Positions 2,416 through 58,160 of a DNA stretch of 64,000 nucleotides are shown one piece after another. The stretch spans positions 372,001 through 436,000 of the forward strand of contig JAQGDQ010000065.1 in the NCBI GenBank assembly GCA_030141605.1, written 5' to 3'. Numbering within the stretch: the stretch's first letter is position 1; each line of letters opens with the position of its first letter. Both the position numbers and the translations under genes were made by a program. The stretch comes from Tubiluchus corallicola. Taxonomy: Eukaryota > Animalia > Priapulida. The notes beneath the pieces are model-generated. The model saw nothing but the letters and a program-made list of their open reading frames with translations. It ran no database searches and was not told the DNA's origin.

Positions 2416-4131
2416 ATGGAAAAACCAACAGTTGAAGAATTCGTAGCACATGTATCGGGTATGATTGAAGAAAAAGATGCAGAGGGATTGTACAAGTTGT
2501 CTCAATCTTCTTGTGTGGATCATATTTTATGTGATGCTGCATGGCATTTATTGCCTTTACTTTGTGAAAGTCTTACTCAAGAAACAGCAGAGCAGTATCC
2601 TGCATATCCATATGCATGTGGAGAGTTTCTGTTAAGGCTGTGCAAGCATGGTAATGCTAAGGAACTTCTTGTTGGTATTTTAGAACATGCAGATACATTT
2701 ATCTGTGATATTCAATACAGTAAGCTTCTGTCAGCTTTGCAGATAATATTGCTTCGGCTTCCTGCTGAAAAGCATCTATATCTGGAGCTAGCTTTACCAC
2801 CAATGTTAGCTCATATTCAGTCTTTACGAGTGCCAGAAGCAAACAGCGTGGACAGTGAGGAAGAACAAATTTTGTATGCCGATGGAGACGTAATACGGAT
2901 TGCTGACTGTATGACAGACTTTGTAGAGTTTCTTCGCCCACTTTTTAATCATGTTAAGCAGTGTGCTAATGATGTGAATGTTCAACAGTCAAAGATGTGC
3001 CTTTCAATAATCCTAATTGGAAGCTTAGGTAGTCCTGTAAATCATTTACCATTAGACGATAAGTCAAGTTGTAAGATCATCGCACATGGTATTATTGAGC
3101 TTTTACTGATTTTAAACAAAAACTTATTTAATGCTTTCTCGTACTTAGCAATGAGCAATGCAAGTTATGACTTTTTCTATTGTCTGCCAGGTGAAGCTAT
3201 TTGTTGCTTGTTTTACCTTATTTTTTGTGAGAAGATTGCATTGGATAGGTTACCATGCGTGCTTCATCCTGTGTATGTAATGCATTTGTGTACTGATATC
3301 ATGAAATCAAGCTTAACACACAAGAGTGCTCAGGTCATCAAAAAATCACTGCTCTTGCTCACAGCTCTCTTAAATAGAATTGATGATTGTGCTAGTGACA
3401 ATCTAGAATTTCAAGAAAGCTATCTTCCAACTTTGCTGATAAATATCACAATTTATAATCATGACAAAGAGTTGCGGCTCATTTCTTTGGATGTTGTGCG
3501 CTTGATTTTCAAGAAATTGCATTTCAGAGCACGAAGCAATTTTCTAGTTCGCATGCTTCACCAGACACAACATTCAGGTGCAAAGGGCTTATTCATAGGA
3601 TTTCTAAAAGATGAGCTCGCATTTCATTTATCTTTAAAATACCCAGCAAAAGAATTCATTTCGGAACCATTCCTTAAGAAATTGCTAAGTCCAGTTTTTT
3701 ATCTTCCTGGTGGGGCAACTACGGATTTGCTTCAAGAGTCTGATAAAATGATGGCTGCGATGAATTTATTACGCTTTCTTCTTATGCGTGATACCAGTAA
3801 TGTGAGTGGTATATGGAACATGATACCTAGCATCACTGCTGAGTTTCTTGATCCCTTGGAAAGAGGCATAAATATATCTAAGGCACACTACAAACTTGAA
3901 CTGGACAACATATTAACAAACAAAACCAAAACTAGTGAATCCAAAAAAATTACTGGTAAACCCGAGATCAGCATTGATGTGGACGGTTTTAGGTTGCCAG
4001 AAGTTACACGCAAACAAGAGATAGATTTGTTAGAAAATGGCATAGCCATGTTTGATTTAATGGCATGCATTCTAGCACATGTTAAAGAAATCATTTATAC
4101 TGCAGAGCGACGTCGGAAAGAGCAAACTTGA
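2416..4131 (+). CDS. GLMN: Glomulin (FAP68 / YAP-binding-ALF4 family), single-exon 571-aa ORF
   Basis: GNAKELLVGILE resembles human CNPKELLLGLLE. DLLQESDKMMAAMNLLRFLLMRD..GIW..FLDPLERGINISKAHY resembles human DLLQNSDRIMASLNLLRYLVIKD..GLW..FLKPLHIGLNMSKAHY. Length is similar to GLMN. Confidence 0.9.
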   Translation: MEKPTVEEFVAHVSGMIEEKDAEGLYKLSQSSCVDHILCDAAWHLLPLLCESLTQETAEQYPAYPYACGEFLLRLCKHGNAKELLVGILEHADTFICDIQYSKLLSALQIILLRLPAEKHLYLELALPPMLAHIQSLRVPEANSVDSEEEQILYADGDVIRIADCMTDFVEFLRPLFNHVKQCANDVNVQQSKMCLSIILIGSLGSPVNHLPLDDKSSCKIIAHGIIELLLILNKNLFNAFSYLAMSNASYDFFYCLPGEAICCLFYLIFCEKIALDRLPCVLHPVYVMHLCTDIMKSSLTHKSAQVIKKSLLLLTALLNRIDDCASDNLEFQESYLPTLLINITIYNHDKELRLISLDVVRLIFKKLHFRARSNFLVRMLHQTQHSGAKGLFIGFLKDELAFHLSLKYPAKEFISEPFLKKLLSPVFYLPGGATTDLLQESDKMMAAMNLLRFLLMRDTSNVSGIWNMIPSITAEFLDPLERGINISKAHYKLELDNILTNKTKTSESKKITGKPEISIDVDGFRLPEVTRKQEIDLLENGIAMFDLMACILAHVKEIIYTAERRRKEQT

Positions 4132-5079: not shown

Positions 5080-8000
5080 ATGATATCAACAAAGCATTTG
5101 ATTTGTGCAAATGATGACATTTATTGGTTTGATAATGAGTGTCATACCAATTTGGTAAATGCTTCTAGAGAAGATCAGTTAATTCTATTTTTGAGTGCCT
5201 GTTGTGTAAACAATACCAGTGTTAAACGTGTTAGCACTGTGTTTGAATGTAGCCAGTTAACTGCATATTATTGCTCAAGGAGGAATAACCACAACATCTT
5301 TGTTCAGGAAGCGGATATTAAAGATAAAACATTTACAGATACCCGTGATATTCATTCGATGGTTAGCAAGTGTATTAAAATTAGAACCAGGTTAAAACAG
5401 AGACCATATGATGCATACGTAATCGCTTGTTTTCTGACAGAAGTCAAGCGGTCCTTTGTGTTACGTCAAGCACTAGTAAAGAAACTGAGAGATTTTTCTG
5501 GGAAGAAACCAAGAAGCCAGCTTTTTCCATTATCTGAAAACAACATACATCTAGTTGTTCAGCTAGAATGGCCAACGAGTCTGTCAGTATGTAAAGCTTG
5601 GTAAGTTGTGGATAATTTCTATCAAAAGTTCTAGGCCTTTGATAGAGTTCTAATTTTTATAGTTATTTAGAAAAAACAAATGGTTGCCAAACATCGTCTT
5701 CTTAATCCCTGTCTTTAACCAGTAAGATAATTGAGGTAAGGGTGCATTAAAATCAAGTGATACTTTATTAGAAATCACTTTATTAGAAAACTCCATGTTG
5801 CACCCCATCTTTTGCTCCAACTGCCTGTAAATCCGTCTTCTAGACGCATGTGTGTACTGTTTTAAGCTGCCTCTTTTTCACTGCTACCAGTTTTTTTGTT
5901 GCTGATGTTGTTTCTTTTTTGTTATCATTGCCATTTAGTTTTTGATGGCGGTGATGATAATGAAGTGAGGATTAGGTTGATAACCATGATGATACTAACA
6001 ATGATTATGATGGTGTGATGTTGATGACACAAACTATGACGCTGATGATGACAATGATGACTATATGGTGACCATGATAATGACACCGTTATTGTTTAAC
6101 TTACTGTCACTGGTTAGACCCCATTGCAAATATTCTACAGGGCATTGGTTACTGTTATACATAGTAACATTTTCTACAATCATCTGGGTCATTATGTTCA
6201 GCCCACGAATACACATATTTCCAATATTTAGGTCATGGCGCCTTATGCTTCTTGTGCTGAAAAAACAAAGTTTAGAAGAAACTATGGCCTGGCTGTCAAC
6301 ATTAGGTGGTGCATATTCTGCAATGGGTGACTATTACATGAGATGTGTATGTATAACTTTCACAGTAATTCATAAGGAATAAGACAAGTTATAAAATTTG
6401 TAACAGTTTTTGTGAATTATTTCAAAAATGGGTAATACTGAAGGTAATAAATGAGGAGTTGTGATGTAAGCTTGTGGGTAAAGTAAAGCAATACTTGACC
6501 GATGTAGTAAATTAATGGCAGGTAAACTGCCTTTTGGCCAGTTTCTCGAACTCTCATCTGCATGCTGCCTTGCTTATTTCACAAAACAAAACTTTATTTT
6601 GTCAGAGCATGAAGATTGTAAATTTTTCAACATTAAGGTACTGTTCTTTGAAGTTGACTGTTTGCAAATTGGTCTAGATATGACAAACTTGTCACTTTGA
6701 TTTGGGATTTCAAATTTTACATTATGCTGATGCAAAAACTGAAGCAGTTTACATGAACACAATTGCAGTTAATTTGGAATTTCAGTACTACAATATAACG
6801 TTATTATAGCGAATATACTAGTATAGGGGACCCAAAAAAAGGTACTCTATAACCGAGGTACTCTGTAATAAGCATATGTGGCTAATCACACACACACACA
6901 CACACATATATATACATATGTATGACTAGATGGACATATAACAATAACATAAGTATATAAATAATGTACACTGCTTGGTTTCATAGAGACGCTATCAAGC
7001 ATCAACTGATTTGAATGTAATTTCAATAAACTAAAAGTTAATGAACATTTCATTTAAATTGCATGTACATGTTCTGATGTAAACTTATATGACATGTTCA
7101 GAAAAGTTAATGAGATTAAAAACAGTCAGTCAATTGTGTTTGCACAAAATTTCTGTTTGTTTCTTGTTAAAAAAGTTTTTTAGCAAGTAACTGCTGTAGT
7201 GTACATCATCACTTGATGAAACATCTCAGTTTCCAGTGTACACCAGTGTAAATAAAACAGCTAGGTGCCAAGTTGCTGAGTGCCAGTGTGTGCTCAATGA
7301 ACTTTATGTGCTCAATGTTTGCTTTAATGGTGTTATGCTGCAGTAGAATCCGTATAGGAAGACAGTGCAAAGGTGCGTTTCAACTGGATGACCTAGTGTT
7401 CCCTCCTAGTGCTTCCTGACCATGAACGTAGGCAAAAATGGCACACTTAGTAAAATATGTGTTTAGGGTTGGGTTACAGCTGGGATAATTATTTTAGTTA
7501 TTTTTACCTCTGCCAAGGAAGTTATGCTTCAACACAGTTTGTTTGTCTGTTTAGTTTTTTGTCTTTATGAAAGTAAGCCTATTATGCAAAAACCATATAA
7601 CAGATTCCAAGAAACGAGTGCCAAATCTTTTCGCTGGTCCCTTTTTCGCAAAATTTGACGGAACACCATGTGCAAAAAATACGTGAAACATTTCTTGGAG
7701 ATCTCAGAGGTAGTGTTTAGTATTTATTTTTTGTTATTTCCACCTAGACAAACAACTATGAGTTAATTCCAGTTCCATTTTGGGAAATTCTCACTTGTAA
7801 ACCTGTATGACGCTGTCTATAACCTTTGCTTATTAATATGTAGTCTTATAAGGTGACTTAGTACGTATATTTGTCAGTCTATTACCATGGCTAAAATTAA
7901 TAGTTAAAAAAGTAGATAAACACTATGTGGCATATTCATGCATTTAACGAACAAATATTGTTTGGGCTTTACGGAGACAAACAAACAAAGTCATCATTCG

Positions 8001-11000
8001 CTCAGTGTAACTGTTTATTGTTTGTACTATTTTCATGGCACATGCCCCGTAGTCATATTTGCTTCATCCCAAAATATTACATTTTATCTGAAATAATATA
8101 TAAATTTCTTTAATAAACTGATTCATTTTTACCAAAACATCGAATATGATTAAATTAATGAGAAGCTTACAACAAAATAAAATAAATGACTAAATAAAAT
8201 TTACGTACATCGTTGGGATTAATCATGAGTTCACGCAGCCACGTCACCACATGTACACCTTGAAACCTAAATGACCGGAAACTCTGTAGGAAGCGACTAT
8301 TGAGGCCAGGTGTCGCCACTTGTAACTTATAGCTATACTAAATTTGACAAACAAAATCCTTGACACCGCCTCCTTAAATGTATGTTAAACATTTACTATT
8401 TACTACAAAGAGTTTAACTGAGCAAAAATCTTTACGAACTGTGCAATCTAATTTTTACAGTGCTTCTCCTTTAAACTCATCAAGTGCGCTTTCAATCAAG
8501 CATAATCTGTGAATGGGGCGCTGCAGCTGCCCATCCTTTGTTTTTAGTGTTACGCTTCTCACTAGGCCGTCTCTTCCAACATGTTTTTCCGTTATTCGAG
8601 CAAGAAGCCAACAACTTCTGGGGGTTTCATCCATTATCAGTACAACGTCGCCTATTTCGACATCCTTCTTTTGACGATTCCATTTTGAGCGGATCTGGAG
8701 AAGCGGCAAGTACTCCGTCTGCCAACGTCGCCAAAAGACATCAGCTAGGTATTGGATCTGGCGCCATTTGCGGCGATAGATGTCTGCTGATGTAAACTTT
8801 CCAGGAGGCAGGTTTGTTAAGTTACACTTCGCCAACAGCAGGTGATTGGGCGTCAGAGGACTACAGTCTTTTGGGTCGTCCGAGGTTGCCGTTAAAGGCC
8901 TACTATTGACAACGTTTTCAACAATGCAGAATAGAGTGTTGAGAGCTTCATCATCAAGAGCTTGTTCATTTGTCACAGAAAGCAAATGCTTCTTGACAAT
9001 CTTGACCATTGCTTCCCATACTCCTCCCATGTGGGGAGCTCGGGGCGGATTATACTCCCACTCGATGTTTTCCTGGAGCAAATCTTTCTGAATAGTGTTG
9101 TGATTCCACTCTTTCATAGCCTTGGAAAGTTCCTTGTTGGCACCTATAAAATTAGTGCCACAGTCGGACCTAATTCTGTTAGGTTTGCCTCTTCTGCTAC
9201 AAAATCTATGGAGTGCTTTAATGAAGGAATCTGTAGACATCGAGAAGAGTACCTCCAAGTGGATGCTTCGTGTGGCTAGACAAGTAAAGAGTGCCCCATA
9301 ACGCTTCACCTCGATTCTACCGCGTTTGACCACAATTGGTCCAAAGCAGTCCACGCCAACCGCAGAGAAGGAGCCTTGTTGAACTCTCTCAGGAGGCAAG
9401 TTGGCCATTTTTTGTTGCAATGGTTGAGAGTAACGCAGCCTACATTGTCTGCATTCATGGATTACTTTCCGCACCATGACTCGCATCCCAATTATCCAGA
9501 ACGCTCTACGGACGGAAGCCATGACATGTTCTCTTCCTGTGTGTCCATTCGTCTCGTGGAAGTGCTGTATGACAAGCCAAGAGAGTCTATGATTTTTGGG
9601 AAGAATAATAGGATGACGAGCTTCATGATCTACTAGAGCATCTTGCAGGCGACCGCCGACACGCAAAATTCCCTCTTTGTCAATAAAGGGATCCAGCTTA
9701 TACAGGCAGGATGATTTGGTTACAGAGCGTTCTCGGCATGTAGATTTGGTACGGGAACACATCGTCTTATATTCTTTGTTGAAACTTTGCTTCTGTGTGT
9801 GTCTGATCAGCTCATTCTGGGCCTCATTTAATTCAGTCAGAGTTAGATTTGTGGAACAATCCATATCACTTCCGCCAGAAGCTTTCCTGTGCAATATTGT
9901 TTTGGCTCGTAATAACCAGGCTAAACCTCTTTTTAGCCTGTAAAAGGATGAGTAATACTGCAACAATTGATCTATGATATTATTTGAAGTTCCCTTGCAT
10001 TCTACGACGTTCACAGTGGCTGACCGCTTTACTTCTTTGTCATTAGCTAGTATATCATCCGAATCTAAATTAGTCTGCGGCCACGAAGCTTCATCTTTTC
10101 TTAAGAAAGATGGACCAAACTTCCATCTATTGGAAAGTAGCAATTCTTCAGCGCTCATGCCTCGGGACGCATCATCAGCGCAGTTGTCTGTTGAGCTAAC
10201 AAACCGCCATTGAGTTGGTGAAGAGACTTGCAAGATTGAGTTGACACGGTTTTGGACGAATGTATGAAACCGCTTTGCTGTGTTCCGAATGTAATGAATA
10301 ACTATCTGACTATCAGTCCAGAAGACCGACTGATCTGTACCAACACAAAAGGATAGCTCTTCCCTTAGCATTTGATCAACTTTTGAGGCTAAAACTGCAG
10401 CGCAGAGTTCAAGACGCGGTATTGTAAGACCTTTAAGTGGGGCAAGTCTTGATTTAGCCATGAGGAATGCTGTGTGAATTTCACCTTGAGCACTCTTCAT
10501 ACGTACATAACTGACAGTACCATAAGCATAGCTCGAAGCATCGCAGAAATGATGCAACTGCAAATGGAAAATCAGGCCAAAATCACGAGGCTTCATGCAT
10601 CTCTCCAACTTGAAGTTTTCTAGTGCGAAACAATCTCCTTTCCACTTTGCCCACTTGGCTTCTGTATCTCGTTCTAGAGCGTCATCCCAATCCTTTTTCT
10701 GAATTCTACATTCATCTTGGAAGAGTTTTTTGGCCTGCAGAACGAATGGACAGATCATTCCTAATGGGTCATAGACTGACGAAATGCAGCTTAACATTCC
10801 TCGTTTTGTACTGGGCTTGTCTTTGAGTGAAACCAAAATTCCAAGGCAATCTTCCTCAACTAGCCATTTAACTCCCAGTACGCGATCAGTTGGCAGAGGG
10901 CTCTGAGTTAAGTCAAGATTCTTGATTTCACTTCCACGTTCTTCAGCAGGCACAGATGCCAAGACCTCACGTCTGTTGCTCATCCACTTAGTTATGTGGA

Positions 11001-14000
11001 ATCCACCAAGAGACAATAAGGCAGTCAGTTGAGAAACTAGCTGTATGGCTTCATTCACGGTGTTTAGCGATTTTAAAAGGTCGTCCACATAGAAGTTTCT
11101 CAAAACGGTAGCGACAACATTTGCGGGAAACAGATCTGCATTGTCTTTTGCAGTCCTTTGCAAAGCAAATGATGCAACGCTCGGGGACCACACCCCGCCA
11201 AACAAGTGTACACACATTCTAAAAGTACGTGGTTGACTGTTAAGATTTCCATCTTTACACCAAAGGAAACGCAACATATTTCTGTGTTTAGGAGACACGA
11301 TCACCTGGTGGAACATCTCCCGGATATCCGCCATTACTGCAATAGGATTCTCTCGAAACCGAAGCAAAACTCCAATGCACGTGTTTGTGAGATCTGGCCC
11401 TTGCAATGGTAATTTATTTAGAGATATTTCATTTGTTTCCGCTGCTGCATCAAAGACGATGCGAGTTTTCTCCGGTTTATTGGCATTAAACACCGGAAAA
11501 TGGGGAAGAAACCATTTCCTGGAAGTAGGGTCATCATCTTCATCGACCTCTTCTGCATATCCTTTCATGAATAGGTCATTTATAGCTATAGTGTATCGGT
11601 TGTGCAATTCTGGGTTCCTCTGCAGCCGTTTACGTAGACTTTCCAATCTAGATGAAGCCATTTGTAGCGTATCTGGTAAAACATCATTCTCAGATTTAAA
11701 TGGGATGTCCAACTGGTAATGCCCATGTGTTTTTGTGATTGAAGCCTCCCATATATCGAGAGCACGCATATCGTCTCTAGAGAAGTGTCTGTCAGACTCG
11801 CTAGTTTCAATTTTCCAGAATTGTTCTATTTGCTGCTGCAAGGAATTGGTTTCTCCATATGACAATGCATTGGCTTGGGTTAAATTACTACAAATGCGCC
11901 CTAAATTAGGAACGCCGCCTCCTATGGGTCCATTAAGGGTCCAGCCTAGCTTTGTCTTCACAGCATATGGCGTTAGTCTAGGACCTGTTCGTACCTCAAG
12001 AGGAATCAGCGCATCAGGAACATCCTGGCCGATCAAAAGTCCCAGTTCAGTTAGGTCTTCTGTATCTGTGAACGATAGGGGAAGTCCTTGCAAATGCGGC
12101 CATTGTTCTACATCCTTGCTAAAGGCCAAGCAGTCCTTTTCCAGTAACAATGCAGGCCTAACGAAGACATGAGGCAAAGCTATTTTATTGCCAGTGTTTA
12201 CCCCAGTAACAGACATCTTCGTGATTAAAGTGTTTACCTTGGAATATTTCTCTTCTATAGTGGTTAAAGAGAGCGTTCGTTCTTGTCCAGTAGCCCCAAG
12301 TTTGTCGAACAATGCCTTTGTACAAAAAGTGTTAGTCGAGCCAGGGTCAAGTAGGGCTAAAGTACGCACGGGCATCTTCCCATCAACTTCAACCAAAACT
12401 GACACAACAGGGAGAGCAGCTTTGCCGCCTTCCTTAATACTAGCACAACTGCTAGAAGCTTCTGGTTTGCAATGTGTTAGCGCTTTTTCCTCCTTGCTTC
12501 CATCATTGTTTTTAGAAGGTGACATTTTCTCCAAGGCAGCATGCAGTAAATTTGAATGCTTACGTCTGCAACCTTCTACGTCGCATCCTGCTTTGAAGCA
12601 CCGAGCAGCCCTGTGCTTTCCTTTAATCAAACAATTGAAGCAAAGACCTTCTCTTCTGGCGGTTTTCAATCTATCAGTATCATTCATTGACTTAAATTTA
12701 TTGCATAGCCTGAGTGAACGGTGTTCCGTAGAGTTACATAGAAAACAAGGCATCTCTAGGCGTTGAGAAGCCATTTTGCCACCACTTCCGGTTGTATTTC
12801 CGGGTTGTCGTTCACTGTTGCATTTCGTAATTGGCGCAGTTTCCTGCGCTGAGCTGGCGAAATTCCTGGCTTTGGTGTCGCGTTTACCTTTTGGGCTCCT
12901 GGTAGGCAGGCTAACGTTAATGTCGCCAAAAACAGGATGATTCATTTTGTCAGCTGCGTCCTTAATGAATTCGACTACATCAAATATCGTCGGATTCCTG
13001 TGCTCATATTTCAGAAGCCTGGCTACAACATCCTTCCACCTATCCTGGAACTTGAATGGGAGTTTTTTAATTATTTGTAGCAAACTGCATTGAGTACTAA
13101 TTTCGCAAACGTTGTTCATTATTTTCAAAGTTTCCACACAAGCCACAATCAAATCCGAAAATTCCTGTAACTTTCCCGGTTCATTTATCTTTATGGGCTC
13201 AAATTCAGCAATTCTGGAAAGCCAGGCCTGTGTGACAACAAATGGCGAACCGAATCTTTCGGTTAAAAGCTGTTTAGCATGCCCATATGCAAAACGGGGG
13301 TCCATGTAATTACAACTGTCTACAACTCTTTTAGCTTTACCAATGCAGAGTTGGGCTAACCTAGTGTACCTCGCTGCATCATCTTGGGTATAGTTCTCCA
13401 CGCTGGCTTCGAAACGCTTGATAAAGCTCCAGAACTTCATTACGTCACCATCAAACGTTTCAAGCTGCACGTGTGGAAGCTGCATAGCATTGTACATATT
13501 TAAGTGTTGTCTTTGGCCTTCTAACATGAGGTCCATAAAAACGTTCATGTCATTCTGACTAGCCCTACCGGAGAAATTCCTAGAATTATTTTGTATCCCG
13601 TTACCATAAGAAGCCTGAGGCGATGTAGCCGGAAGCGGAAGTAGCGTATTCCCTGGGACGAAGTCACGTGCAGAAATATTTAAAGTTTGTTCTACCTGGG
13701 GTGATTTAAATGCGGCATGGAAGAACGGCGTAGTTTGTTTAACGCTAGGTTCTAAAACTTCACTGGGAGAATTTTCGAAGAAGGGTTGTACATCAAATAA
13801 ATAGATATCCCACCATCTACGAAGAAAACCTGATTCATAGTCATCCGAAAAATTGACGTTTACATATTCAGTATAATCCCAGGGCTTCTTTCGGCCCAAA
13901 AAGTGCGCAACTTTAATCTTGCTACTGAACTGCTTCATTGCAGGAAGGTAACCGTAACGACCTTGGACGGCAGCATTATACACAAAAGGTAGGCGCTTGT

Positions 14001-17000
14001 CAAACTGTAAACTCCAGTTCGGAAAGGCTAAATTTAATAACCCCTGATCACCGCCATCGAATGAACAGGCCTCAGTTTGTGATAGTGACATCAATCTACT
14101 GTAAGTTTCCAAATTGGGCTGAAATACAAACATTCCAGAATTAAAACAATCAGGCCACCCCACATCTGGGGCAGCCGCAAGCTCATCATAATTGAATAAC
14201 TCATCAATATTATCTAATACTAAAGTATCAGCATCTAAGTAAACGCACTTTGTAAACTGTGTCATAGCCCAGCAGTGCAATTTCGAGAATGTTACATTTA
14301 GCTCTGGCCTACCTAGCAAATGCAAGTTATCAAAATCACTACTCTTTAATAAATCAATCATTTGTACATAATCAAAAACATTACTAAGCTTTGCCATAAC
14401 TCTGCTAGAAACAGTATGGGTGACCAAAATTGCTAGATGTCGAGTTGTACCAGTTCGACGCAAACTGTGTGCCAAGACAAGAGCTCCCTTAGCATAACTG
14501 TCGTTCGTTGCCATGGTGAGATAGGCCTCCATAGACGTATGATGAACTGCAGGCTTGGTGTCTGATGACTGGGCTTTGGTGACGTCACGCACTCCTTGAA
14601 GCCAATCGGTAACCTTGTCCTTGGTTGACATGGGTTTCCTAGCTAAAGTCTCGTCTTTGATTTCAGGCGAGGTGACGGTTGTACGCGACTTCTGACTGGT
14701 TGCACTGCTATGTGAAGTAACTTCACTCTCAAGTCTTAACTGTTTTAATTTCATTGCTTTTAATTTCAGCTCCTGTTCCTGAATCTTAATCTCATGCAAC
14801 TTTAATTCCCTGGCACTTTTCTTCGACCGTCTCGTAGATTTCGAATGACTAGCACCTGAAGATGCTTTGCGCTCAACAACTTGATGCTGCGCTGTCGCTG
14901 TAGCTGCGTCAGCATACGACGACGTACCAGACGCTTCACATGACGTCACATTATATGAATGATCTGGTTTCTGCTGACTTGCTAAGAGTCTGTGAATTAG
15001 CTCTTCTTTACTACCAGAAACTGACAGTTGTTTAGCCCGCAGCATTTCTCGCAGCTGATCACGGGTCGTATTTTTTAATTTCTCCCTTGTTGTTTGGTCC
15101 GACATCATTTAGGTGTGTTCAACTTTAAACATGACCAAATAACTTCTCCTGTCTACAAAAGTCAATCTATGTACGCGAAACAGTAGCTAAACCGGAAGTA
15201 GGTCACAATCTGGGTCATATGTTGACTGTATAAAAATGTCCACTCTGGATTGTCGAATGCCGATATAAAATTGTTTGGGCTTTACGGAGACAAACAAACA
15301 AAGTCATCATTCGCTCAGTGTAACTGTTTATTGTTTGTACTATTTTCATGGCACATGCCCCGTAGTCATATTTGCTTCATCCCAAAATATTACATTTTAT
15401 CTGAAATAATATATAAATTTCTTTAATAAACTGATTCATTTTTACCAAAACATCGAATATGATTAAATTAATGAGAAGCTTACAACAAAATAAAATAAAT
15501 GACTAAATAAAATTTACGTACATCGTTGGGATTAATCATGAGTTCACGCAGCCACGTCACCACATGTACACCTTGAAACCTAAATGACCGGAAACTCTGT
15601 AGGAAGCGACTATTGAGGCCAGGTGTCGCCACTTGTAACTTATAGCTATACTAAATTTGACAAACAAAATCCTTGACAAATATTGTTGTAAGTTTTGCTA
15701 GTCTATATAATACCAATACAGGCATTTTTTGTATGTTTGCATGTTTATCTTTGTGTTAAATTTTTTGAATCAAAATAATCAGACGAATAAGATTAGGATT
15801 GTTCAACTTTAGCAGAGATCTGCTTCATACTGAACGCATTCTAGTTTTATTATATAAGTCAATTGCATCAGTATAACATATGTGCCATTTTCCTACTTTT
15901 CCATTTGTGCCATTTTTACTTACTTTTCCAGTTCTGCCATTTTTACCGGGCACCCCTGACCACATATGGTATAGGTTAATGCTGTTAACCACAATGTGTG
16001 CCTTTAAGGCCAATACCAAATTCATACCAATTTGTACAAGAACAAAGTCAGAATCATGACTGGCAGCCAAAAATTAGCACCAACAACATATAAACCAAGA
16101 CTAGCAAAATGGTCTTGAGATCAAGACCAGTCTTGAAATGTACAACTCATTCTAGCAACAGAATAATGTTCACAACTTTCAAGCTTGTTAAAATTTATTT
16201 GTAGGCAGAGATTGCAGGAAAAATTTCTGTTCAGCAGCTACAGGTGGCATTGGAGACGGGTGATCAAATATTATCAGCCAAATGCAGAGTTTATATTGCG
16301 ATAAGTTTCATGCAAAGAGGCAGATTGAAAGATGCAAAGAAAATTATCAGGTTAATTTCTGTGTTGCTTTATAATTATTGATTAACTAGATATATAACTT
16401 TTATAATGAAATTGCAACTTGTGACATTTTAACTGTTCTTGGGTCAGGGGTCAAACCAAATTCGTGTCAACCTTGTTCAATTTGTTTCATCCAGGCCTTT
16501 TATTTGGTATACTACAAGCCATTGTTGTTCAACACTGGAACGACCCCTATTTTCTGGTTTTGGCCCCTAACAAAAATTGTTTTCCGCATCCATATTTCAA
16601 TAATGTAGAAGAATTCAACTTCTAGCCACATAACAAAAATTGTCACCCTACTTAAAAACTGTAGAAGGAACTGTAGAGCCTAATGAAAAACTGATAGACT
16701 CTACTTTCCTTGACTCTTTGACCCAATGTCACAGTCACTACTCCGTTGTTTGAAGTCCTTTTACAGGTATATGCAGTGCAGTTTTGTGACTCAAGTGTTG
16801 TGACTTTTCCAGTTATTGACAAAACTCTGCTTTAACACTTTTGTCACACGACCTGGCCATTCCCATTTTCCGAAAAGTACTTAATACGCCATTACTTGAC
16901 TACTCATGCGTGTAAAAACATGGACTCCTAATTGAATACTGCAAGTGGAGTTGAGTGACAAAGCCATTTGCCCTAATTTTCACATTCTGGCTCCTGCTGT

Positions 17001-30400: not shown

Positions 30401-33400
30401 CTTGCTTGTATGCTTAATTTGCAGAAACAGTTAAAACATTGTAAAGTGTACTATAAACACTAATGACATTTTTGGCTAAAATGTATCAAAATGGATAATC
30501 ACTTGAAAAAGCAAACTAACATAAACAATGAACAACCAGAACAAGATATTTTAACTTTCTACCTCAAACTGGGCAGATATAACTTTAGCCTTTTTGCTCA
30601 AAACTTGTCCAACGGCATTAAAGTTTCTATCACGGATGTCAGCATACAATTCTTCAGCTGAATTTAGCAGAAACTGCTTCATTTCTGTCTGAATCATAGA
30701 CACACCAGTTTGTGAGTCTTGGTTCAAAAACTTCTCAGGAGGCAATTTTACCACATCTAAAGTTACCAATTAAATAATGATAAAAACTGAAAAGGATTAA
30801 CCCTGTAATTAATATACATTAAGCTCTAGGTGTTTCTGATCTTGAAAATATTGATTTTTGATAGTGTGTACAAAATTTTTGATAGTGTGTACAAAATTAA
30901 AATTGCTCATTTATCACGAAAATGGCATTTTTTGCATTTGATTCTGCAATAATGCAACTGAAAATGAATTTTTGCAGATTTTATACATCTTACATTTAAC
31001 ATAGACCTAGGAACTCAAATGCTTCTTTTCAAGAGCTATACTGCACAACTTGCTTTGCTAACTAACATTCATATGAACATGCAATTAATAAACTATGAAA
31101 TCAGTGACTATATAGTCAAGACGGTAAAGCCAGCCTAACTGCTAGGCCGAACAAGTTTTGCAGGTTTTTAATATGATTATTAAAAAAATGTCATTTGTCT
31201 TAAATATTCGAGAATTTGTCAATGTATAATAACTAAATCTTTTTTGTGACTTCTTACGTATGACAATAGTTAGCGCTGTACTGCACAGCACCATGTTAAA
31301 GTTATTGAACCTCATGTTTATAAACAACTGCACAGACAGCTTTCACAAAAATATATAATTTCAAAAATTGTTAAACCCAGTTACACATCAATTTGTAAAA
31401 GTGCCTACTTGACAATTGTTTCAGTTACTATATAGCGAGCCAAGCAAAATATTACACTACTGTGAACTTTCAGCTGTTTTAACAAACCAAGAATTTTTTA
31501 AATGCCTTATATGAGACTTTAAGAACTTTGCTTACATTTAACGGTTCTTGGTTCAAACACAGGCTTGGTTTTTGCATTTTATATTTTTCAGGTAAATCTC
31601 TTTCGTTAGTGTAAAACATGTTTAACAGGCAGATGATCACAAGGTACAAACAATTTAACTTACTGTTATTAATGCCATATATTTCATCAATCAGACCTTC
31701 ATATGTAAGCTGCATAGCAAGTGGAGTGAGAAGATCCACATTACGGTCTAGCAATAGCAAGCTATCAATCTGCGGCACAATTTGTGGCTCATTACCTCCG
31801 AGCTCTCTCCGCATGCGTAGTATCATATCACATACTTTCTATATGCAATCAGTATTCAGTTAGAAATCAGTAAACAACATCATTAATATTAAAAGGAAAA
31901 AATAGTACTTGATTCAGTTTTATTAGTAATTACAAATACAAATGCTTATTGTTTGACATGATGCGAAGGTAAAATTCCACTTTGTATTTGCAGGAATAAA
32001 GAAAACAAAGAGACATATGATCCAATGTTATTGTTAAAAAGTGGCATATTAATTCCTGGATATCACTTCTACTACACAACTCACTGATTCATTTAAGCAA
32101 TTCAACAAGTTTACAAATATGAAGTTCTAATGAATACATTATTTCATTCTTGGCAATCTTTTTTTGTGTAAGCATTTGACTTTTGTTTATGAGACTTTTA
32201 TCTTTTTTCTTATTGACTACTAAATCATCAGTAATAAACTATTAATGTTGACTTATTAATTGCACTTCGAACAGTAAGTATCTGCTTATCAAGTTAAACC
32301 ATTTAAAAGTCGGTTTATTATTGATTTGTTTATTAATAATAGTTTTGCTTGCTTAATGTTCTTTTGCTATCTTTGCTTACTGCCACTGACTTATTAAAAT
32401 TAATGTCTTTCCAGATTTTACACTTGACTTTTAATTTTTAGTTACCTTTGCACACACTCCTTTTCCATGTATATAAGGGATAACTCCATACAATGCTTGC
32501 AATGTCATTAATGCCTTTGCAGCATCAAACAGCACTGTGTAGTCGTCTTCAACATAGCACTCCTAGAAGCAATACAACAACAACTGATTAGTTGTCAAAT
32601 CAGTGAGAAACAAAATTTCATGAGGGAATAACCCACAATTACTGCACTTTCAAGATCAAATTTAGCAAAAAAATAAAATGTAAAAAGTTTAGAATTCAGC
32701 TTGATTTGAATGATGGTTTTCCTAAGATTCCAGTACCTTAAAGCAACCAGCCATTTTCTCTACTTATCACCAAATCTTGTTTTTAGAAGTTTTATAATTG
32801 TGGGCTTACAGGATTATTTATTTCTTAATTGAAATTACAATTACATATAACTAAATAATAGACTTAAATTAAAACACCTTAAATGCATTTGCAGCTTCCA
32901 TGGATAGTACATCACTGTCAAATGGAAAAAGTTCAAGAGAATACTCATCTATAGTTGTAAAAGCACCATAAACACCTCTGTCCTTTAACATTTGTTCACA
33001 GAGCAGTGTTTTGCCCGGAACGAAGAAGATGTGGAAATCTTTACGTGGTCCTGCTGGAGATTCCGTCCTAAAATAAAAAAAACTTTCTGAAGAGGCTTAA
33101 GTTTTCATACTTCACAAGAATTTTTTATTTCCATTTTCATTACAGGTATAAAAATTTCAATTGGGTTACATGCATAGGTCACTCATTTGCTGGGTGGTCT
33201 TCTACTATTTCACCTAATAAGGTAGGTAATAAAGTCATTTCTTAGATTTCAGCTACTGTTTCATTAATTAAGTTTTTTCCGATCCTAAAGCATGTTTTAA
33301 TATCAGCCTTAAAGTTCTTAATGTTGCAAAGAGGTCACTGTATAATAACATTTAAAATTTGTTATTATGTCACAAATTTTAAGTTAATATGTAACAATAA

Positions 33401-42400: not shown

Positions 42401-45400
42401 ACACACCCAAAACCCATGTTAACTTAGATATATTGGATGCTTAAATAAAACATTACCCAGTTCCGTGACTGTACTTGTCAGGTTATACAATTTACTTTAA
42501 ATTTGGATAGAAGTGCTTGACCTGGTGTTGATTTACTCATGGCTCGACATTGCTTCATTTTTTTGCTTCTTATGTTGGATTGAGTTTCTTGATTTATATG
42601 TAATTTTTAGTTTTGTTTTTGTTGAGGTCAAAGGGCAGAATAGGGTCAATCTTGCACAAAATATAAATAGCATTTTGATTTTAAGGAAAAAACAGGTCAA
42701 ATTTGTTATGTAATAATAAAAGCACTTTGAGTTAATAATGCAATTAATGAACAACAAGAATTAAATACATTTTGATTTGAGTTCAACTTCATCATTTCTA
42801 GATTTATTGATTAAAAATAAATCTAATGATTTGGACAATAATACTAAATAAAATAATTTTCAATATGCTGATAATTTTGACAAACATTTAGCTATATAGG
42901 TTTTTTTTAATAATTTTATAAAGGAAAGGTAAGACTTGTGCAATCTGTGAACAACACCCGAAACTTTACTCATAAAATAGTACTGCGGTATGACTTTAAA
43001 AATTACTGTGCTGCAAAGAAGAGAAGAAAGACAGAGTATTTCCTGATATTGATGATAATATCTGTAATGGTCTGTGGATTTGCTAATTTGTAGAGTTCAT
43101 TTGTATTAGTAATTTGTAACAGCATTCAAAGTACGAATCGGCAGCTCGTTATTCAATAATTGAAAAAAAATTAGTTGAGTATTAGAGTACATTTTCTGAG
43201 CCACAGATTCATGCCATGCTGTAGTATTTTCAGTTTTATGAATATTAATGTAGTTAAGATTATGAAGTTAGATAAAGAAAATAGAATATAGTTGAGTAAG
43301 AGCTTAACATTAACCAGAGTAAGTTAACAGCAATTGCTTTTTAAGTTTAGAGATCAACATATAGATATTGTTAGAATCTTTAATATTACTGTTCAACCAA
43401 TTCCAAAATTTAACAGCTTTATATTTGATAGTACTTAATCCATGAGTGGTACAGAATCTGGGCGTAAAATATAGACCACAAGTGGCAGATCTATTTTCGT
43501 AGTTATGGATTTCAGATATGGGAGTAAAATAGTTAGAGAATAGTTCAGGTAAGTTCTTATTTTCGAAACAATACATGAATTTGGCCAGCTTTAATTGGTA
43601 AATTTCATCAAGTTTTAACAGTTTAGGTTTTCCATAAGAGGGTGTAGCATGAGCACGATATGGGCTAAATGTAATGATTTTCACTATCTTATTCTGGGCT
43701 ATAATGAGTGGTTTTAGGACAGATGTTTTTGCAGTACCAAAGCACAGAATACAATACTGGAGATAAGGATATGCAAGTGAGTAGTAAGGCATTCATAAGA
43801 TGAAGGTGTCTAAGAAATATTGCACTTTAGCAAAAAGACCAATGAGCTAATTAAATTTATACGTGACTGATTTAATTTGAGTTTTCCATGACAATGTATT
43901 ATCAATGTACAAACCAAAGTATTTTATATTATCGGCTGCAATTAATTCATGATCCCCATAAACAGTTTAAAAGTATTACATGCATCGAAGGCTTGGTTAG
44001 AAATAAGCATATATTTTGTTTTTTCATAGTTTATTGTTAACTTATTAGCCCTCATCCATGTATCTATCTTGTCTAGTTCATTGTTAGTCTTGAGTTGAAG
44101 CTGACTAAGATTAGTACAACGTAAAAATAGGTTTGTATCATCTGCTAATAACAGGACGTGGAAATCAGAACAGTGTGCCAAATAATTAATGTGAATTAAG
44201 AAAAAAAGGGGACCTAATGTAGAACCTTGGGGAACTCCACATCTTATGCCAGTGATATCCGAGTGGGTATTGTTTATGCAAGTATATTGTTTATGATTGC
44301 TAAGTATGATTTTAGTAGTTCCAGCGGGGTACTCCTAATACCATAATGTTCGAGTTTGTTAAATAGTATGTGATGCTGTATGGTATCAAATGACTTTGAA
44401 AGGTCAAGAAATATACCACAAGTTGTTAATTTTTTATCTAAGTTGGAATGAATAGTATCTATTATTTCTGTCATAGCGAGCATTGTTGAGTAGATTTTCC
44501 TGAAGCCAAACTGGTACTTGCATAAGATGTTGCAACTGTTAAAAAAGTTGGAAAGTCTAGAATATATTACAGATTCAAAATTTTTTGCAATGGGGGACAG
44601 TAATGAAATAGGCCTATAGCTAGAAAGAACATCTAGGTCATTAGATTTGTAAATTGGTAATATTTTAGCTAGTTTCAGTTCATCAGGAAAAATACCTAGT
44701 GAGAGTGACTTATTGATTGTATGAGTTAGAACTGGAGAGATTATGTCAGCAGTGATTTTATAGTATTTTATTGGAACATTCTCGGGAATGGCAGCCTTAC
44801 TAAATATCTAGTTTTAATATAAGCAATGTAATTTCTTCTATGGTGACTGGATTAAAAAAATTGAGTTTTGATTGCTTGGGCCAAGAAATTGATAAGGACC
44901 AGCAGAGGAGTTAATGCTATTAGCCATGTTTTAACCAGCTGTTGTAAAAAATTGTTGACATTGTTGGCTATTAGCTTAGGAACTGTGATTTTGTTTTTCC
45001 TTGCACTAATTTTGGTTGGAGTAATCCATTTTTTTGTTACCAAGAATTTCATTTAAGGATGACCAAACTTTTTTAAATTATTCTTGTTGTTATTGATAAG
45101 ATTATGATAATATTTTTCCTTGGATTGGGCCTTAATATGATTAAGTTTATTGACATAATTTTTGTACTGTTTTTGCCTTAGAGTAGAATCAGACAGTTTA
45201 TGTGTTTTATACATTTTACTGCGATTACGAATAGAATTTAAAATAGCAGGTGTTATCCGGCTTCTTAAATGTTGATTGCTCTTTTCTGGATAAAGATTTC
45301 ATGGGAGCATGTTTATTAAGAATACTGATGAATATTTTTGAGCCTTTAATTTTGGTAGCTATTGTATTGTGTAAGGAACCCGAAAAAACAAGCTTAAAAC

Positions 45401-49169: not shown

Positions 49170-52100
49170 TATATATATATATATATATAATAATCTTTAT
49201 TTGCCATTAAAAACATTGATAATCACTGATAAAAACTTTACAGAGATAATCAATCAGTGTTAGTTAATAAAAATTTACACTGCTGAAGGCAAATGCGTCA
49301 GTGCCATCTAAACTACTGTGCAGTAATGACGAATAAAATCAAACATATTTACAACCATATACAAAAAAATAAAAAATAAAAAAAAACTATGATTTAATTA
49401 ATATGGCCGTGGGTATATGAATTCTGAATTAGTGTGTATGTTGTCGTACTGGTGTGATGGCATTTCATATCTGGTTAATATTAGTGATTTTAATTTTGTT
49501 TTAAATGCTGATAGGGACTTGATTTGTTTAACCTGTAATGGTAGAGAATTCCAAAGTAAAATTGCTTGTTTGATTACAGAGTTCGTTCCATAGTGGGTAT
49601 TTGTCCTAATTTGTTTTAGATTGCTTGTTCTGGAATTAACGATAGGATTTGGAAAAAAGGTAAATCTGTTATTCTGGAATGGTTTGCTGATGTTGTTAAA
49701 GTATTTAAATATAAAAAGCAGAGTAAAATATTCTTTGTGTGCTTCAATGATTGGGAATTTTAAAGTTTTTCTCAGGTTAGTTGTTGAAGCTTTGAATTTT
49801 TCTCTACCTGCCTTATGTTTGTATGAGTACCCAGCTATCAATCTCAACGCATAGTTTTGAAGGAGATTTAATTTTAAGTAATTTTCTCTTTTGGTTTTTT
49901 GAAGTAGCGTACATCCATATAAGAAGTGTGGTAGAACTAAAGTTTTATATATTAGTGTTTTAGTTTCCTTTGTTAGTTGCCCTTTAACTTGTCGGAGATA
50001 TGATGTGCTAGATGCCATTTTTGTGTATATGTTATTAAAGTGTTCATCCCATGAAAGATTATTGTCTACCTGTATGCCCAGGAATTTAACATTGTTAGTT
50101 TGTTTGATTACAGCATTATCTATTGTCAAAGTGGTTGATGATGCATCATTAGTATTTAATGAGGGTGACAATATCATAAATTCTGTTTTGTCATTATTCA
50201 TTTTTAGCTTGTAATGACTAAATGCCATATTTATATTTTTTATATCTTCTTCTAAATAATTTTTTGCAGTTTGGACATTTTCATGGGCTATGTAGATTGT
50301 AGTGTCATCAGCGTATTGCGTTATTTGTGAGTGTTTTAATACACTGGATATGTTGTTTATATATAGGCAAAATAATAACGGACCTAGTAGTGTTCCTTGC
50401 GGTATACCTCTGTTTAACGTGGCCCAGTCAGAAAAGTTGGTTGTATCTAACTTTACTCGTTGTTGTCTGTCTTTGAGATAATTTTGTATCAGTTTTAACG
50501 ATGTCGAATCTAATCTGATTTGTTTTAAATTATCGTAAAGTAGTTCGTGATTAATGCTATCGAAAGCTTTACTTAAATCTAAAAATGCTGCTAAAATGTA
50601 TTGCTTGTTGTCTAAACTATGTCTCCAATTTTCTGTTGTGTGTATTACAGGCGTCAATGGTTGAATGGTGTTTACGGAAGCCAAACTGATGTTTTGATAA
50701 AAGTCCATGTTTATTTACATATGAATTTATCTGATCATAAATTACCCTTTCCCAAACTTTGCCAAAACAATGGATTACGGAAATTGGGCGATAATTCATG
50801 GGATCACATTTTGAATCTTTTTTATGGATTGGAGTCACGTATGCCATTTTACATACTGTTGGAAATTCGCCTCTCATAATTATCTGATTAGCAATGTAAG
50901 TCATATGCGGGGCTATTACAGATGCACTATCTTTTAGAATTTTGATAGGAATATCTGATGGCCCACTCCCTTTGTTGGAACTTAGGTTATTTAATATGTC
51001 GTTAATTTCTCCTACTGTGACGCTTTTGAATGAGAATACTGTGTTGGACGATTTGTTTTTTAATTTGTTAATTATATTATTGCTAATATGAGAAGCCATT
51101 CCCTTAAAATTTCCAAGATTCAGGAATATTGCATTTAGCGCGTTGGCAATATCTTTGGGTTTTGTAATAACAGTGTTGTTGATCTTAATTTCGTCAACAC
51201 GCGTTAGTTTGTTACGACATTTATTTATTACATTGTTAATAATTTTCCATTTTTCTTTAGTATTTCTTACGTTTTTACATTGTTGTTGTATATGTTTATT
51301 TTTCAAGCATTTATTAAGATTATTAAATTGATTTCTCTTTTTTTTATAATTGTTATGATTGTATTTAGTTTTGTTCTTTTCCCATATATTATACATTTTG
51401 TTTTTCGCTATTCTTAGTTTGTCAAGTTCAGGTGTTGTCCAGGTACTTTCGTTATTGAGTTTGTTTTGTTGTGGGATTTGCTTTACGTTTTTATATGGTG
51501 CATGTACATTAAGGCAATATTCGACATTATATATCAGAATATTAACTTGTGTATCTATTTTATCAGTCATATATATGGAGGTCCAGTTCATTTTTGCTAA
51601 GTCGATTAAGTATGAATGTTTGTTGTATTGGGCGTAGTCTCTCATTAAGTGCCAGACTGAATTTTGGTTATTGTTATGCTGTGGGGTCATTTTATCTACT
51701 AATATTGTGAAATGACGATCTGAATAATCACACGGGAAAGTATCATATGCTACGAAATTATTGTTACTATTCGAAATGAAATGGTCGATTACTGTGGCTG
51801 ATGTTTTAGAAATTCGAGTGGGTTTATTGTTGTTAAGTATGTGGACATTATATTGTTTTAAGAGCTCTGTGTATGTTTTGTATGCCAGTGTGTTAGTAGC
51901 TAAAATATCAAGGTTGAAATCGCCCATTATAAGAACTTTTTTATTTTCGAAAACAATGCGTTCTAGTTCTTCACTAAAGTATTTGAAAAATGTTTTGTGT
52001 TTGAGATTGGGTGGTCTATATATGGTTCCTATTACATAGTTTTCAATGCTGCACCAAACAGATTCAATCTTGCCGGTTCTGATGCCTTTCATTTCTTGTG

Positions 52101-53330
52101 GTCTCAGGTGTGAAGGTATATACATCGCAACCCCTCCACCTTTCTTATTTTTACATCTATCTCTTCTTATTAATGTGTGATTAGGTAATTCTATAGTGTT
52201 GCTAAGTATTTGTTTATGTAGCCAAGTTTCTGTTATGCCTACAATCAGATTTTCGGTGGCGTGAATTGTATCTTTCAGCAGCCAGTGTTTTTTGACGAGA
52301 CTTTGAATATTTATATTTAGAAATTTGATGTTCTTTTTATAAGTAATCATGAATTTTTTTAGCTCATCACTGGTATTATTATTGTTGGTGTTATTGTTAT
52401 TGTTATTATTATTATTATTATTATTTGGCAAAATGGGTCCAGGGTTAGTTTCGATACCACCAAGTATAAGTAGTAAACGAATTATGGTTAAAATGTAAGC
52501 CAGTTCAGAACATGAGTATATAGTGCTTTCAAATTTAGATGAAATCTGTAATTTTCCCAATTTTTTTAGAGCTACGTATTTTAGATTGACATGACGCATT
52601 TGCCTTTTTAGGAAGTACACAGAGTTAAAAATATTTTTTACAAGTGGTTGAACGTCATAATTAAAGTTCAAATGATTAAAATCAGGCCAATTTTTAAGTT
52701 TAAAAATATGATAATTCTTAATTATTACAGGTAAGTTGGTATTGCCATTGTACAGCTGTAAGATGCATATCGAAGCAATAAATAAAATTTTATGGGAATT
52801 ACATTTAGCTTTTACACATATGAAAATTTTTGAAATATAAATTAAGATCTGTATTACTTATTAAGTCAAGAGTATAAAGCACAAAATCAGGATTAAGGCA
52901 ACATGGGTCCACTAGTAAAATATATGAAGGTATTACGCTTAAATTTATCAGCACCATAATTAATTTACTATTGTGTGACTTAGAAAGAGTAACGTAAATT
53001 ATGAGAGTTAGACTGATTGCCAATAGGCTAATGTTAACGATAGGCCTATAACATGCACACATTTCATCATTAGTGGGTACATTATATGAAGTACAGGCGG
53101 CACTAATTGGGCAAATAACGTGAAGATGTGTGCCCTTGCAATATCTACATATTATTTGAGATGAACACATCCAAGCAAAGTGACCACCTTCTAGGCCCTT
53201 AAAATTGTATCATTGAGCTTGTTTCTTCTGCTTTGAGCGGTCGTAAACTGATCAGAATCTGCTGACCAGTAATTCTGATGGCAAAAATGGCACGAAGTCG
53301 GTGGCTGATCCTTCTTCGACATTCTATAAG
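49170..53330 (-). mobile_element. Near-complete CR1/L2/Crack-group LINE: ORF1 zinc-knuckle remnant, ORF2, 3' UTR, (TA)n tail
   Basis: APE and RT domains; 3' end AATAAAGATTAT then (TA)n at about 49165-49190; knuckle remnant GH FAWMC..CRYCKGTH..C near 53110-53215. The 5' limit is approximate. Confidence 0.88.
49398..52671 (-). CDS. LINE ORF2 (APE endonuclease + reverse transcriptase) split by one +1 frameshift near 50648
   Basis: APE: NINIQSL, GITETWL, GGGVAMYI, IYRPP, MGDFN, IDHF, SDRH. RT: NYRPIS, QFGFR, FLDLSKAFD, GIPQG..LGP, YADD. The paralog at about 60575 reads GAC CCC CTA ATA where this copy reads GAC GCC TGTA ATA. Confidence 0.85.
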
Positions 53331-57010: not shown

Positions 57011-57059
57011 TTGATGTCGCCTCCCGCAGCTATAAACCTACGTAATGCCAAAATAAAGC

Positions 57060-58160
57060 ATCGGCGGTCATATCATTAACTACTTAAAATGTGCTGCACG
57101 TGATGCAAAACAGGTAAACAATGCGAAATAGCGCTTCTTTTCGGACCTCCTCTCCTTTATTACAAAAGGACCAAAACAATCTACAGCTACATATGTGAAT
57201 GGAGCACAATCCTCCAATCTATACTTTGGTAAATCACTCATTTCTAGGAATATACCTTTAAAGTGCTTACACCTCTTTATTTGTGCAGCTACAACTGAAC
57301 TGCAATGTATCACCCAATATCCTTGTGCACGTAACTCATTCATGGTCATACTTCGACCGCCATGTTTCACACGCTCGTGACTGTATCGCACAATTAATTC
57401 TGTCAATACATGTTTGGAAGGGTGTTTCTCATGAAAGGTAAATCTCTAACAAGTTGTACCACCGACTCTAAGAATTCCATTACTATCAATAAAAGGTGCA
57501 AGATTTCTCAACCTGCCATTTACCTTCTTCTCCCTAGACGACTTATTATTGGCTTGACTCTGCCTAATATGAATTAACTCGTCACTAAAACATTCTCTCT
57601 GTGCTAGACGAATCATAGCGTACTTAGCTTGCTGGGAATAAGAAACACTTTCAGATTCAGCTACCTTTCCTTTAACCTTGTTAAGAAAATTGTCTATAAA
57701 TCATGCACAATATTGCATACATCGTAATGTAGAGTCAGATACTCTATAAAGCAAAGGTAGAGCTTCTGACTTAACTGCTACGCGATAAGATACACCTTTG
57801 ACTTTGTTAATTTCTACATGACTAGGATTCAGAGTAGGTTCGTACGGATTAATGGGAATAGTCTCTTCCCACAGGAAATCAGCACCTTTAAACCATAACT
57901 CATCACACAACAGTTTTTCTACCGTCAAACCGCTTGATGCTATATCTGCTAGATTATTAAACGTAGAGATCCAGTTCCTCTGTGATGGACTGGTATGTGT
58001 CATTTGCTATGTAACCCAACTCTACATTGCTGTCATACTAAAAATATTCCTTACATTTTCTAAATTAAGCTCTCTGTTTAGAAACTTGCTAATATGAGCC
58101 GCTAACAAAGCTGCTGTCAACTTAAGACGATGAATACTAACAGTCTTGATCGGAGCTACT
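57060..58160 (-). pseudogene. Decayed BEL/Pao RNase H - integrase fragment
   Basis: VAPIKTVSI.RLKLTAA, NLADIAS.G, PFTYVAVDCFGPF..KRY.ALFTC.ASRA.H. Confidence 0.8.

Follow-up and report, generated by a model that had tools for sequence, protein, structure and literature searches.

The window examined here, a stretch of 64,000 nucleotides from the priapulid Tubiluchus corallicola (contig JAQGDQ010000065.1, positions 372,001 to 436,000 of the forward strand), contains on its minus strand, at 7959-15678, a structurally complete long terminal repeat (LTR) retrotransposon of the Bel/Pao group. A single, uninterrupted open reading frame (ORF) of 2217 amino acids (aa) at 8455..15108 encodes its polyprotein in the order SAP, glycogenin, Gag and Pol. 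Between the SAP domain and the capsid domain of this polyprotein lies an intron-free, captured glycogenin catalytic domain without the synthase-binding tail (aa 193-442, 13783..14532). All features of the element given below are on the minus strand, except for the target-site duplication, which has no strand. The fusion of glycogenin to Gag-Pol is real, in frame and part of a young, structurally complete insertion. Among the listed runs (X1 to X6) a contig of X2 (record 13262-13866) bridges the junction between the domain and Gag, and a piece of X5 (record 14291-14659), which is 11.4% different, crosses the 5' junction of the domain. An assembly chimera is ruled out by these contigs bridging both junctions.

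The domain opens at an in-frame ATG (M193, 14530-14532), which matches the start of host-type glycogenins. Each of the catalytic motifs and residues named in an initial annotation of the window was found at its place in the ORF: SKLH at aa 275 with K276 corresponding to human K86, the metal-binding motif DAD (aa 292-294, 14227..14235), SFDGGDQG at aa 349 giving D351 and D354 (human D160 and D163), the acceptor Tyr385 (human Y195, codon 13954..13956), H402 and K408, and WWDIY at aa 432, behind which the domain ends with VQP (aa 440-442) at 13783. Mapped via the alignment of the PDB match, all 17 positions checked for catalysis, ligand binding or the acceptor role are the same as in human GYG1, and the equivalents tested (DxD, the His metal ligand, K86, D160/D163, Q164 and K218) are all present. 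The acceptor column is occupied by Tyr in 257 of 258 homologues. The Pfam profile GT8 matches aa 197-413 above cut-off, and an AlphaFold model of the domain has a pLDDT of 88 and a template modelling (TM) score of 0.90 to 3t7m. The homology to 374 glycogenins spans aa 194-442 and enters the homologue at residue 5 (all medians), which implies that the insert begins with the start codon and stops where the folded domain does. These limits equal those of the truncated PDB constructs of 262-270 residues, the minimal catalytic unit.

Compared with glycogenin-1 and -2 (GYG1/GYG2, CAZy GT8; PDB 3t7m, 1zct, 4ueg), the element domain is therefore alike in its fold, in ~50-58% of its residues, in all checked catalytic residues, in the acceptor Tyr and in the limits of the truncated constructs, but it lacks the linker and the synthase-binding tail, is embedded in a Gag-Pol polyprotein and carries nine conservative changes at near-invariant columns. 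As the synthase-binding motif is lacking, we regard it as a glycogenin-derived catalytic domain and not as a complete glycogenin, although from its sequence it is predicted to work like one. The domain was also compared with a trans-glycosyltransferase of the Gat1 type, and both E-value and TM score place it nearer to glycogenin. The top PDB match, far beyond chance, is human glycogenin-1 (E 3.4e-84), and Gat1, the Skp1 alpha-galactosyltransferase (PDB 6mw5), is far more distant (E 8.1e-32, 30% identity, TM 0.71 versus 0.90). Gat1 too has a catalytic domain resembling that of glycogenin, functions in the absence of a synthase-binding tail and modifies Skp1 in protists (10.1101/764241), whereas the element domain has the acceptor context of glycogenin (Y385, Y387, P389, A390).

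The absence of the tail behind WWDIY..VQP, as initially annotated, holds in two kinds of search. The motif WE.G..DY was found neither in the ORF nor in the six frames of the window. A hidden Markov model (HMM) of the tail matches 223 of the 258 host-type full-domain glycogenins, which remained when the 374 had been filtered by coverage and identity and for duplicates; on the window, at E ≤ 10, its sole row is an 8-residue match of -4.7 bits in another frame. The tail of the homologues lies a median of 57 residues behind the end of the domain (198 measured), and a remnant of it within the linker was rejected by the HMM search.

In place of the tail a linker leads into Gag, as the initial annotation had claimed, but its supposed richness in Ser, Pro and Asn is only modest (N 11, S 10 and P 9 per 100 residues). 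The linker contains a motif, LNxxAxxFxP (aa 476-485, 13654..13683), which is common to related Gags. Of 120 related Bel/Pao polyproteins, 46 have a motif of the type LNxxAxx[FW]xP, versus 1.4 in shuffles, and its distance in the element of 68 residues ahead of the core compares with a 5th-95th percentile of 31-93 in the relatives (36 measured). In our estimation the motif resembles PAM2, and such a PAM2-like Gag motif might recruit poly(A)-binding protein. In Bel/Pao relatives that bear a SAP domain, this domain is followed by a Ser-rich stretch, a coiled coil, a variable linker, the LNxxAxx[FW]xP motif, a further linker and the capsid; when the 253-aa insert is subtracted, the N-terminus of the element measures 287 aa, and those of five SAP-bearing relatives measure 241-329. 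Since the motif is common to the relatives and stands at the usual distance from the capsid, the sequence downstream of the domain is, as judged by these comparisons, most likely the element's own Gag linker. The enzyme would thus have been inserted in a flexible arm ahead of the capsid, and its tail was most simply lost during capture. In LTR-mediated capture of mRNA, 3' truncation and in-frame fusion are common, a BEL case included, in the cases described in PMC5131818 (Tan et al.). With a native-looking linker and truncation being so common, the tail loss alone is weak evidence for repurposing, and we do not follow the initial annotation on this point.

The element itself has all the parts of a Bel/Pao retrotransposon. 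Its two LTRs of 407 bp (3' LTR at 7959..8365, with TG...CA ends, and 5' LTR at 15272..15678) match base for base, which makes the insertion very recent, and they are flanked by the target-site duplication AATAT (7954..7958 on the 3' side, 15679..15683 on the 5' side). A polypurine tract (8366..8375) directly precedes the 3' LTR. The SAP domain (aa 15-42, 14983..15066) remains under the Pfam cut-off; SAP is annotated also in five of the 120 relatives, which are without glycogenin. DUF1759, assigned by Pfam, represents a capsid-like helical domain (aa 552-693, 13030..13455). Its model is helical and has the capsids of PNMA2, dArc1, Copia and MLV as top matches (best E 5e-3, probability 1.0), with zero matches at E ≤ 0.001 in the structure search. 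By sequence, three nucleocapsid-like Cys/His knuckles (aa 788-856, 12541..12747) follow, presumably a trait of the family. The aspartic protease motif LLDPGS (aa 919-924, 12337..12354) is of a D-P-G form also present in 31 relatives, and the YVDD motif of the reverse transcriptase (aa 1340-1343, 11080..11091) is the commonest form among the Bel/Pao relatives (97 of 120). The region of the Bel/Pao marker Peptidase_A17 (10309..10809, E 2e-43) we take to be the RNase H, and the integrase region (8497..9591) comprises an H2C2 zinc finger, the D-D-E motifs and DUF5641. Capsid and nucleocapsid are thus followed by protease, reverse transcriptase, RNase H and integrase. The nearest Bel/Pao relatives listed are ~40-45% identical, the named ones being from echinoderms, a nemertean, a crustacean and a mollusc. 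The element fits the description of the Belpaoviridae (PMC8742986) in its LTRs (0.2-1.2 kb), genome size (4.2-10 kb), single gag-pol ORF, order of the pol domains and polypurine tract; however, the extra gene described for that family is env, and the element carries a GT8 domain instead.

Despite the very young insertion, no canonical TGG-type primer-binding site was recognised directly behind the 5' LTR (15240-15271), where Bel/Pao elements have an 18-nt site for tRNA-Arg or tRNA-Gly; the window contains 0 tRNA genes of the host for comparison. The depth of the LTRs in X2 (~13,000-16,000) is well over twice the internal depth of 1,300-1,700, possibly due to many solo LTRs or non-autonomous relatives. 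The element is bordered by imperfect inverted repeats at 7425-7460 and 15894-15947. In three DNA runs its left side is a repeat of very high depth; the insertion apparently took place within a repeat resembling a miniature inverted-repeat transposable element.

Four of the six listed runs, belonging to two studies, contain the stretch nearly unchanged. Runs X1-X3 possibly represent the source sample, X4 hardly differs in the flanks, and none of them is counted as independent. In X2 the contig depth relative to the unique flank is 5-8x for the domain and 8-9.5x for gag/pol; although contig depth is a weak measure and gives no copy number, this suggests several family copies, mostly keeping the domain. 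X5 carries the same species label and shares next to none of the sampled words, and its element differs by 10.9-17.4% over gag-pol (seven pieces). As one of the X5 pieces spans the domain junction, the capture likely predates this divergence, assuming that the X5 pieces are of one lineage. A recent passenger nearly identical to the host mRNA, which the initial annotation had set against its own reading, is made unlikely by this diverged element which also has the domain. In run X6, by our guess an RNA run, the element is not covered at 80% likeness, and no RNA run is among the listed holders of the stretch; neither result was used as evidence. Over the middle of the domain (13897-14330) X4 shows a depth of 127-158 compared with 25-50 in its gag/pol contigs, with element-type alleles and without such a peak in X2, depth again being a weak measure. 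At 14867, in the N-terminal Gag linker, the major contigs of X2 and X4 differ from this copy by 9 bp in length, in frame.

A close donor of the domain was not found among the homologues compared, the best identity being 58%, and in a tree of 82 sequences (4 intended rows missing) it forms a long branch joining near the root. The GC content at third codon positions is 0.38 in the domain, inside the element range of 0.38-0.47, and 0.32 in the host gene (n=1). The domain is intron-free, and so is a glomulin-like ORF of the window.

Exact look-up of the polyprotein and of the glomulin-like protein gave no match. None of the 240 glycogenins listed (120 out of 161 long proteins and 120 out of 2664 of middle length) has a Gag/Pol match, and none of the 120 Bel/Pao relatives, listed of 1861, has a GT8/glycogenin domain. 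When aa 1-880 were searched against 1.84 billion representatives (top score 301 bits), the best 150 of 11,175 hits were all strongest in the glycogenin part. A metagenome scan gave three loci at 52-54%, one of which (L001) is an ordinary tailed glycogenin. In the literature, the titles and opening lines of abstracts gave no description of a fusion between glycogenin and Gag, a search which covers few subscription journals and not Repbase; the main text of a Bel/Pao survey (PMC3118150) contains 'glyco' 0 times and names env as extra gene. The capture of host genes by LTR elements is itself known, and the combination of glycogenin with Gag is a novel form of it.

Other features of the window include the intron-free glomulin/YAP-Alf4 ORF mentioned above (571 aa, 2416-4131, plus strand). 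Two long interspersed elements (LINEs), of which the first has endonuclease and reverse transcriptase in a pair of overlapping ORFs and the second is broken, and a likewise broken gypsy-type pol are located at 49398-52857, 43310-44807 and 54590-57445, all on the minus strand. Exon-like pieces of a Sec1-family gene (31482-31838, minus strand) and of a DUF4807 gene (6011-6382, plus strand) were noted as well. Two ORFs of equal length on the plus strand (59359-59676 and 62313-62630), ~2.95 kb apart and with the same weak endonuclease match, are probably a local duplication.

The substitutions within the domain likely reflect constraint at the protein level, as far as sequence comparison can tell. 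At the 82 columns which are at least 95% conserved there are no radical changes, while 4.8 are expected under neutrality at 5.5% divergence, i.e. half of the lowest X5 distance (P(0)=0.008; 0.0002 at 10%). Among the coding variant sites (37, from 40 listed of 1190 rows) 11 are located in the domain, five nonsynonymous and six synonymous, with the catalytic residues untouched, compared with 11 nonsynonymous and 15 synonymous elsewhere in the ORF; the resulting omega for these listed variants is ~0.34 in the domain versus ~0.30 elsewhere (Fisher P 1.0). Several observations speak against reading this as selection for the enzyme. The domain has nine substitutions at the 82 columns, all of them non-radical, and this exceeds each of the 258 host-type sequences (median 1); its tip is the second longest of 82 in the tree. 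Both could mean either relaxed selection or an unsampled host lineage, and such a lineage could also be the source of the conservative changes. That all changes are conservative could equally be explained by selection for a foldable insert within Gag. The retention of 17 of 17 catalytic positions has P 0.11 under neutrality at 5.5% (0.018 at 10%), and the absence of the domain from the 120 related polyproteins means that it is dispensable for the replication of the clade. A dN/dS near 1 had been proposed initially as an argument against selection; omega lies below that value, but with a sample of 11 sites, drawn from the 40 rows listed out of 1190, the domain differs from neutrality only at P 0.064.

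We favour, with roughly even confidence, the view that selection maintains the domain as a module which glucosylates itself and is exposed on Gag or on particles. The main rival, which we judge rather unlikely, is a tolerated passenger: a chance in-frame capture in a permissive linker, carried along by an active family and selected only for an open frame and for folding, so that any activity would be incidental. The substitution excess at conserved columns agrees with this, as does the catalytic-site retention, which taken alone is not significant at 5.5% divergence. Moreover, the Gag N-terminus is highly variable in length among the relatives, reaching 493 aa ahead of the core, and according to PMC5131818 retrocopies made via LTRs frequently keep the frame (14 of 17) and are frequently truncated. 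However, 750 extra bases have persisted in at least two lineages ~11-17% apart, the X2 depth gives no hint of many domain-less copies, the catalytic residues at the surface and the acceptor Tyr are all kept, and the synonymous share is the same as in gag-pol.

Improbable, in our opinion, is a purely structural or binding role in which a dimerising or glucan-binding unit would aid the assembly or localisation of Gag with catalysis being secondary; the place of the domain in the linker ahead of the capsid would suit such a unit, and glycogenin acts across its dimer interface (10.1101/764241), but the domain has kept all its metal, nucleotide-sugar and acceptor residues. Still less probable is a manipulation of the host, in which the freed tail-less enzyme would pair with host glycogenin or drain UDP-glucose and so lower glycogen priming. 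The absent tail and the fold, intact in the model, would allow this, and the authors of PMC5735306 hypothesised that human glycogenin with a truncated tail interferes with the normal form; however, the same paper reports a heterozygous carrier of a tail-truncating GYG1 allele as unaffected, and the benefit to the element is not clear. The dominant-negative partner of host glycogenin proposed in the initial annotation therefore finds no positive evidence. For an RNA-level decoy, whose captured sequence would yield small RNAs against the host gene, host fragments captured by Drosophila telomeric elements offer a precedent (PMC13534243). We consider such a decoy very improbable, as the constraint is seen at the amino-acid level and the divergence would erode the matching. 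Besides, glycogenin is not known as a silencing gene.

A self-glucosylating Gag could have arisen and could act as follows. The sequence was likely captured from a host mRNA; template switching would have retained what lies between the start codon and the end of the fold and dropped linker and tail. The domain would then have persisted through 11-17% element divergence under protein-level constraint, a step for which the X5 element and the substitution pattern speak in part. An arm N-terminal to a retroviral-type capsid would face the cytosol. As the ORF is single, each Gag-Pol carries one enzyme domain, and crowding of these domains would aid autoglucosylation of Gag. By analogy with the family, the domain would use Mn and UDP-glucose to glucosylate itself on Tyr385. 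In PMC9287172 the isolated catalytic domain of human glycogenin becomes glucosylated, unlike Y195F; the synthase binds to the final residues at the C-terminus of glycogenin, and the carbohydrate module of PTG binds the catalytic domain once this is glucosylated. Self-glucosylation without coupling to the synthase, as initially proposed, is thus plausible for this intact-looking, tail-less domain. Glycogenin adds up to ~8-12 glucoses using its dimer interface (10.1101/764241), and the short chains on Gag or particles would presumably be poorly extended by the synthase. More speculatively, the glucan tag might bring Gag or the particles into association with host proteins that bind glycogen, or with the glycogen-rich cytoplasm of germ cells, without docking glycogen synthase. 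That an autonomous retrotransposon family builds a self-primed glucan coat on its capsid protein, making its particles glycogen-like bodies which recruit glycogen-binding proteins or ride on germ-cell glycogen, we put forward only tentatively and hold to be doubtful.

Host coding sequences fused to Gag-Pol or kept beside it, as here, are known from retroviral gag-onc fusions and from the dUTPase of retroelements, and the gag-onc viruses are mostly defective. The domains known to have been kept by retroelements have nucleic acids, chromatin or membranes as their targets rather than the storage of carbohydrate. An extra RNase H is another captured enzyme domain of retroelements (PMC4408406). The LTR-mediated retroposition described in metazoans by Tan et al. 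(PMC5131818) likewise places a 3'-truncated and often in-frame piece of host mRNA inside an LTR element, one case using BEL18_AG. However, those loci are young non-autonomous chimeras, whereas the present element has a complete gag-pol and has kept its cargo while diverging markedly.

If the glucan-coat reading is true, the family would perform a cytosolic self-glycosylation undescribed for any LTR retroelement in the literature searched. LTR elements are known to capture host mRNA, and the usual outcome is a chimera that is short-lived and non-autonomous. In this case a whole enzyme domain of carbohydrate metabolism resides in the Gag of a complete and apparently multiplying family and has lasted through marked divergence. 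The element offers a testable case of a retroelement acquiring a new enzyme via its capsid polyprotein, and a natural test of how glycogenin acts once uncoupled from glycogen synthase, with a possible tie between retrotransposon particles and glycogen biology.

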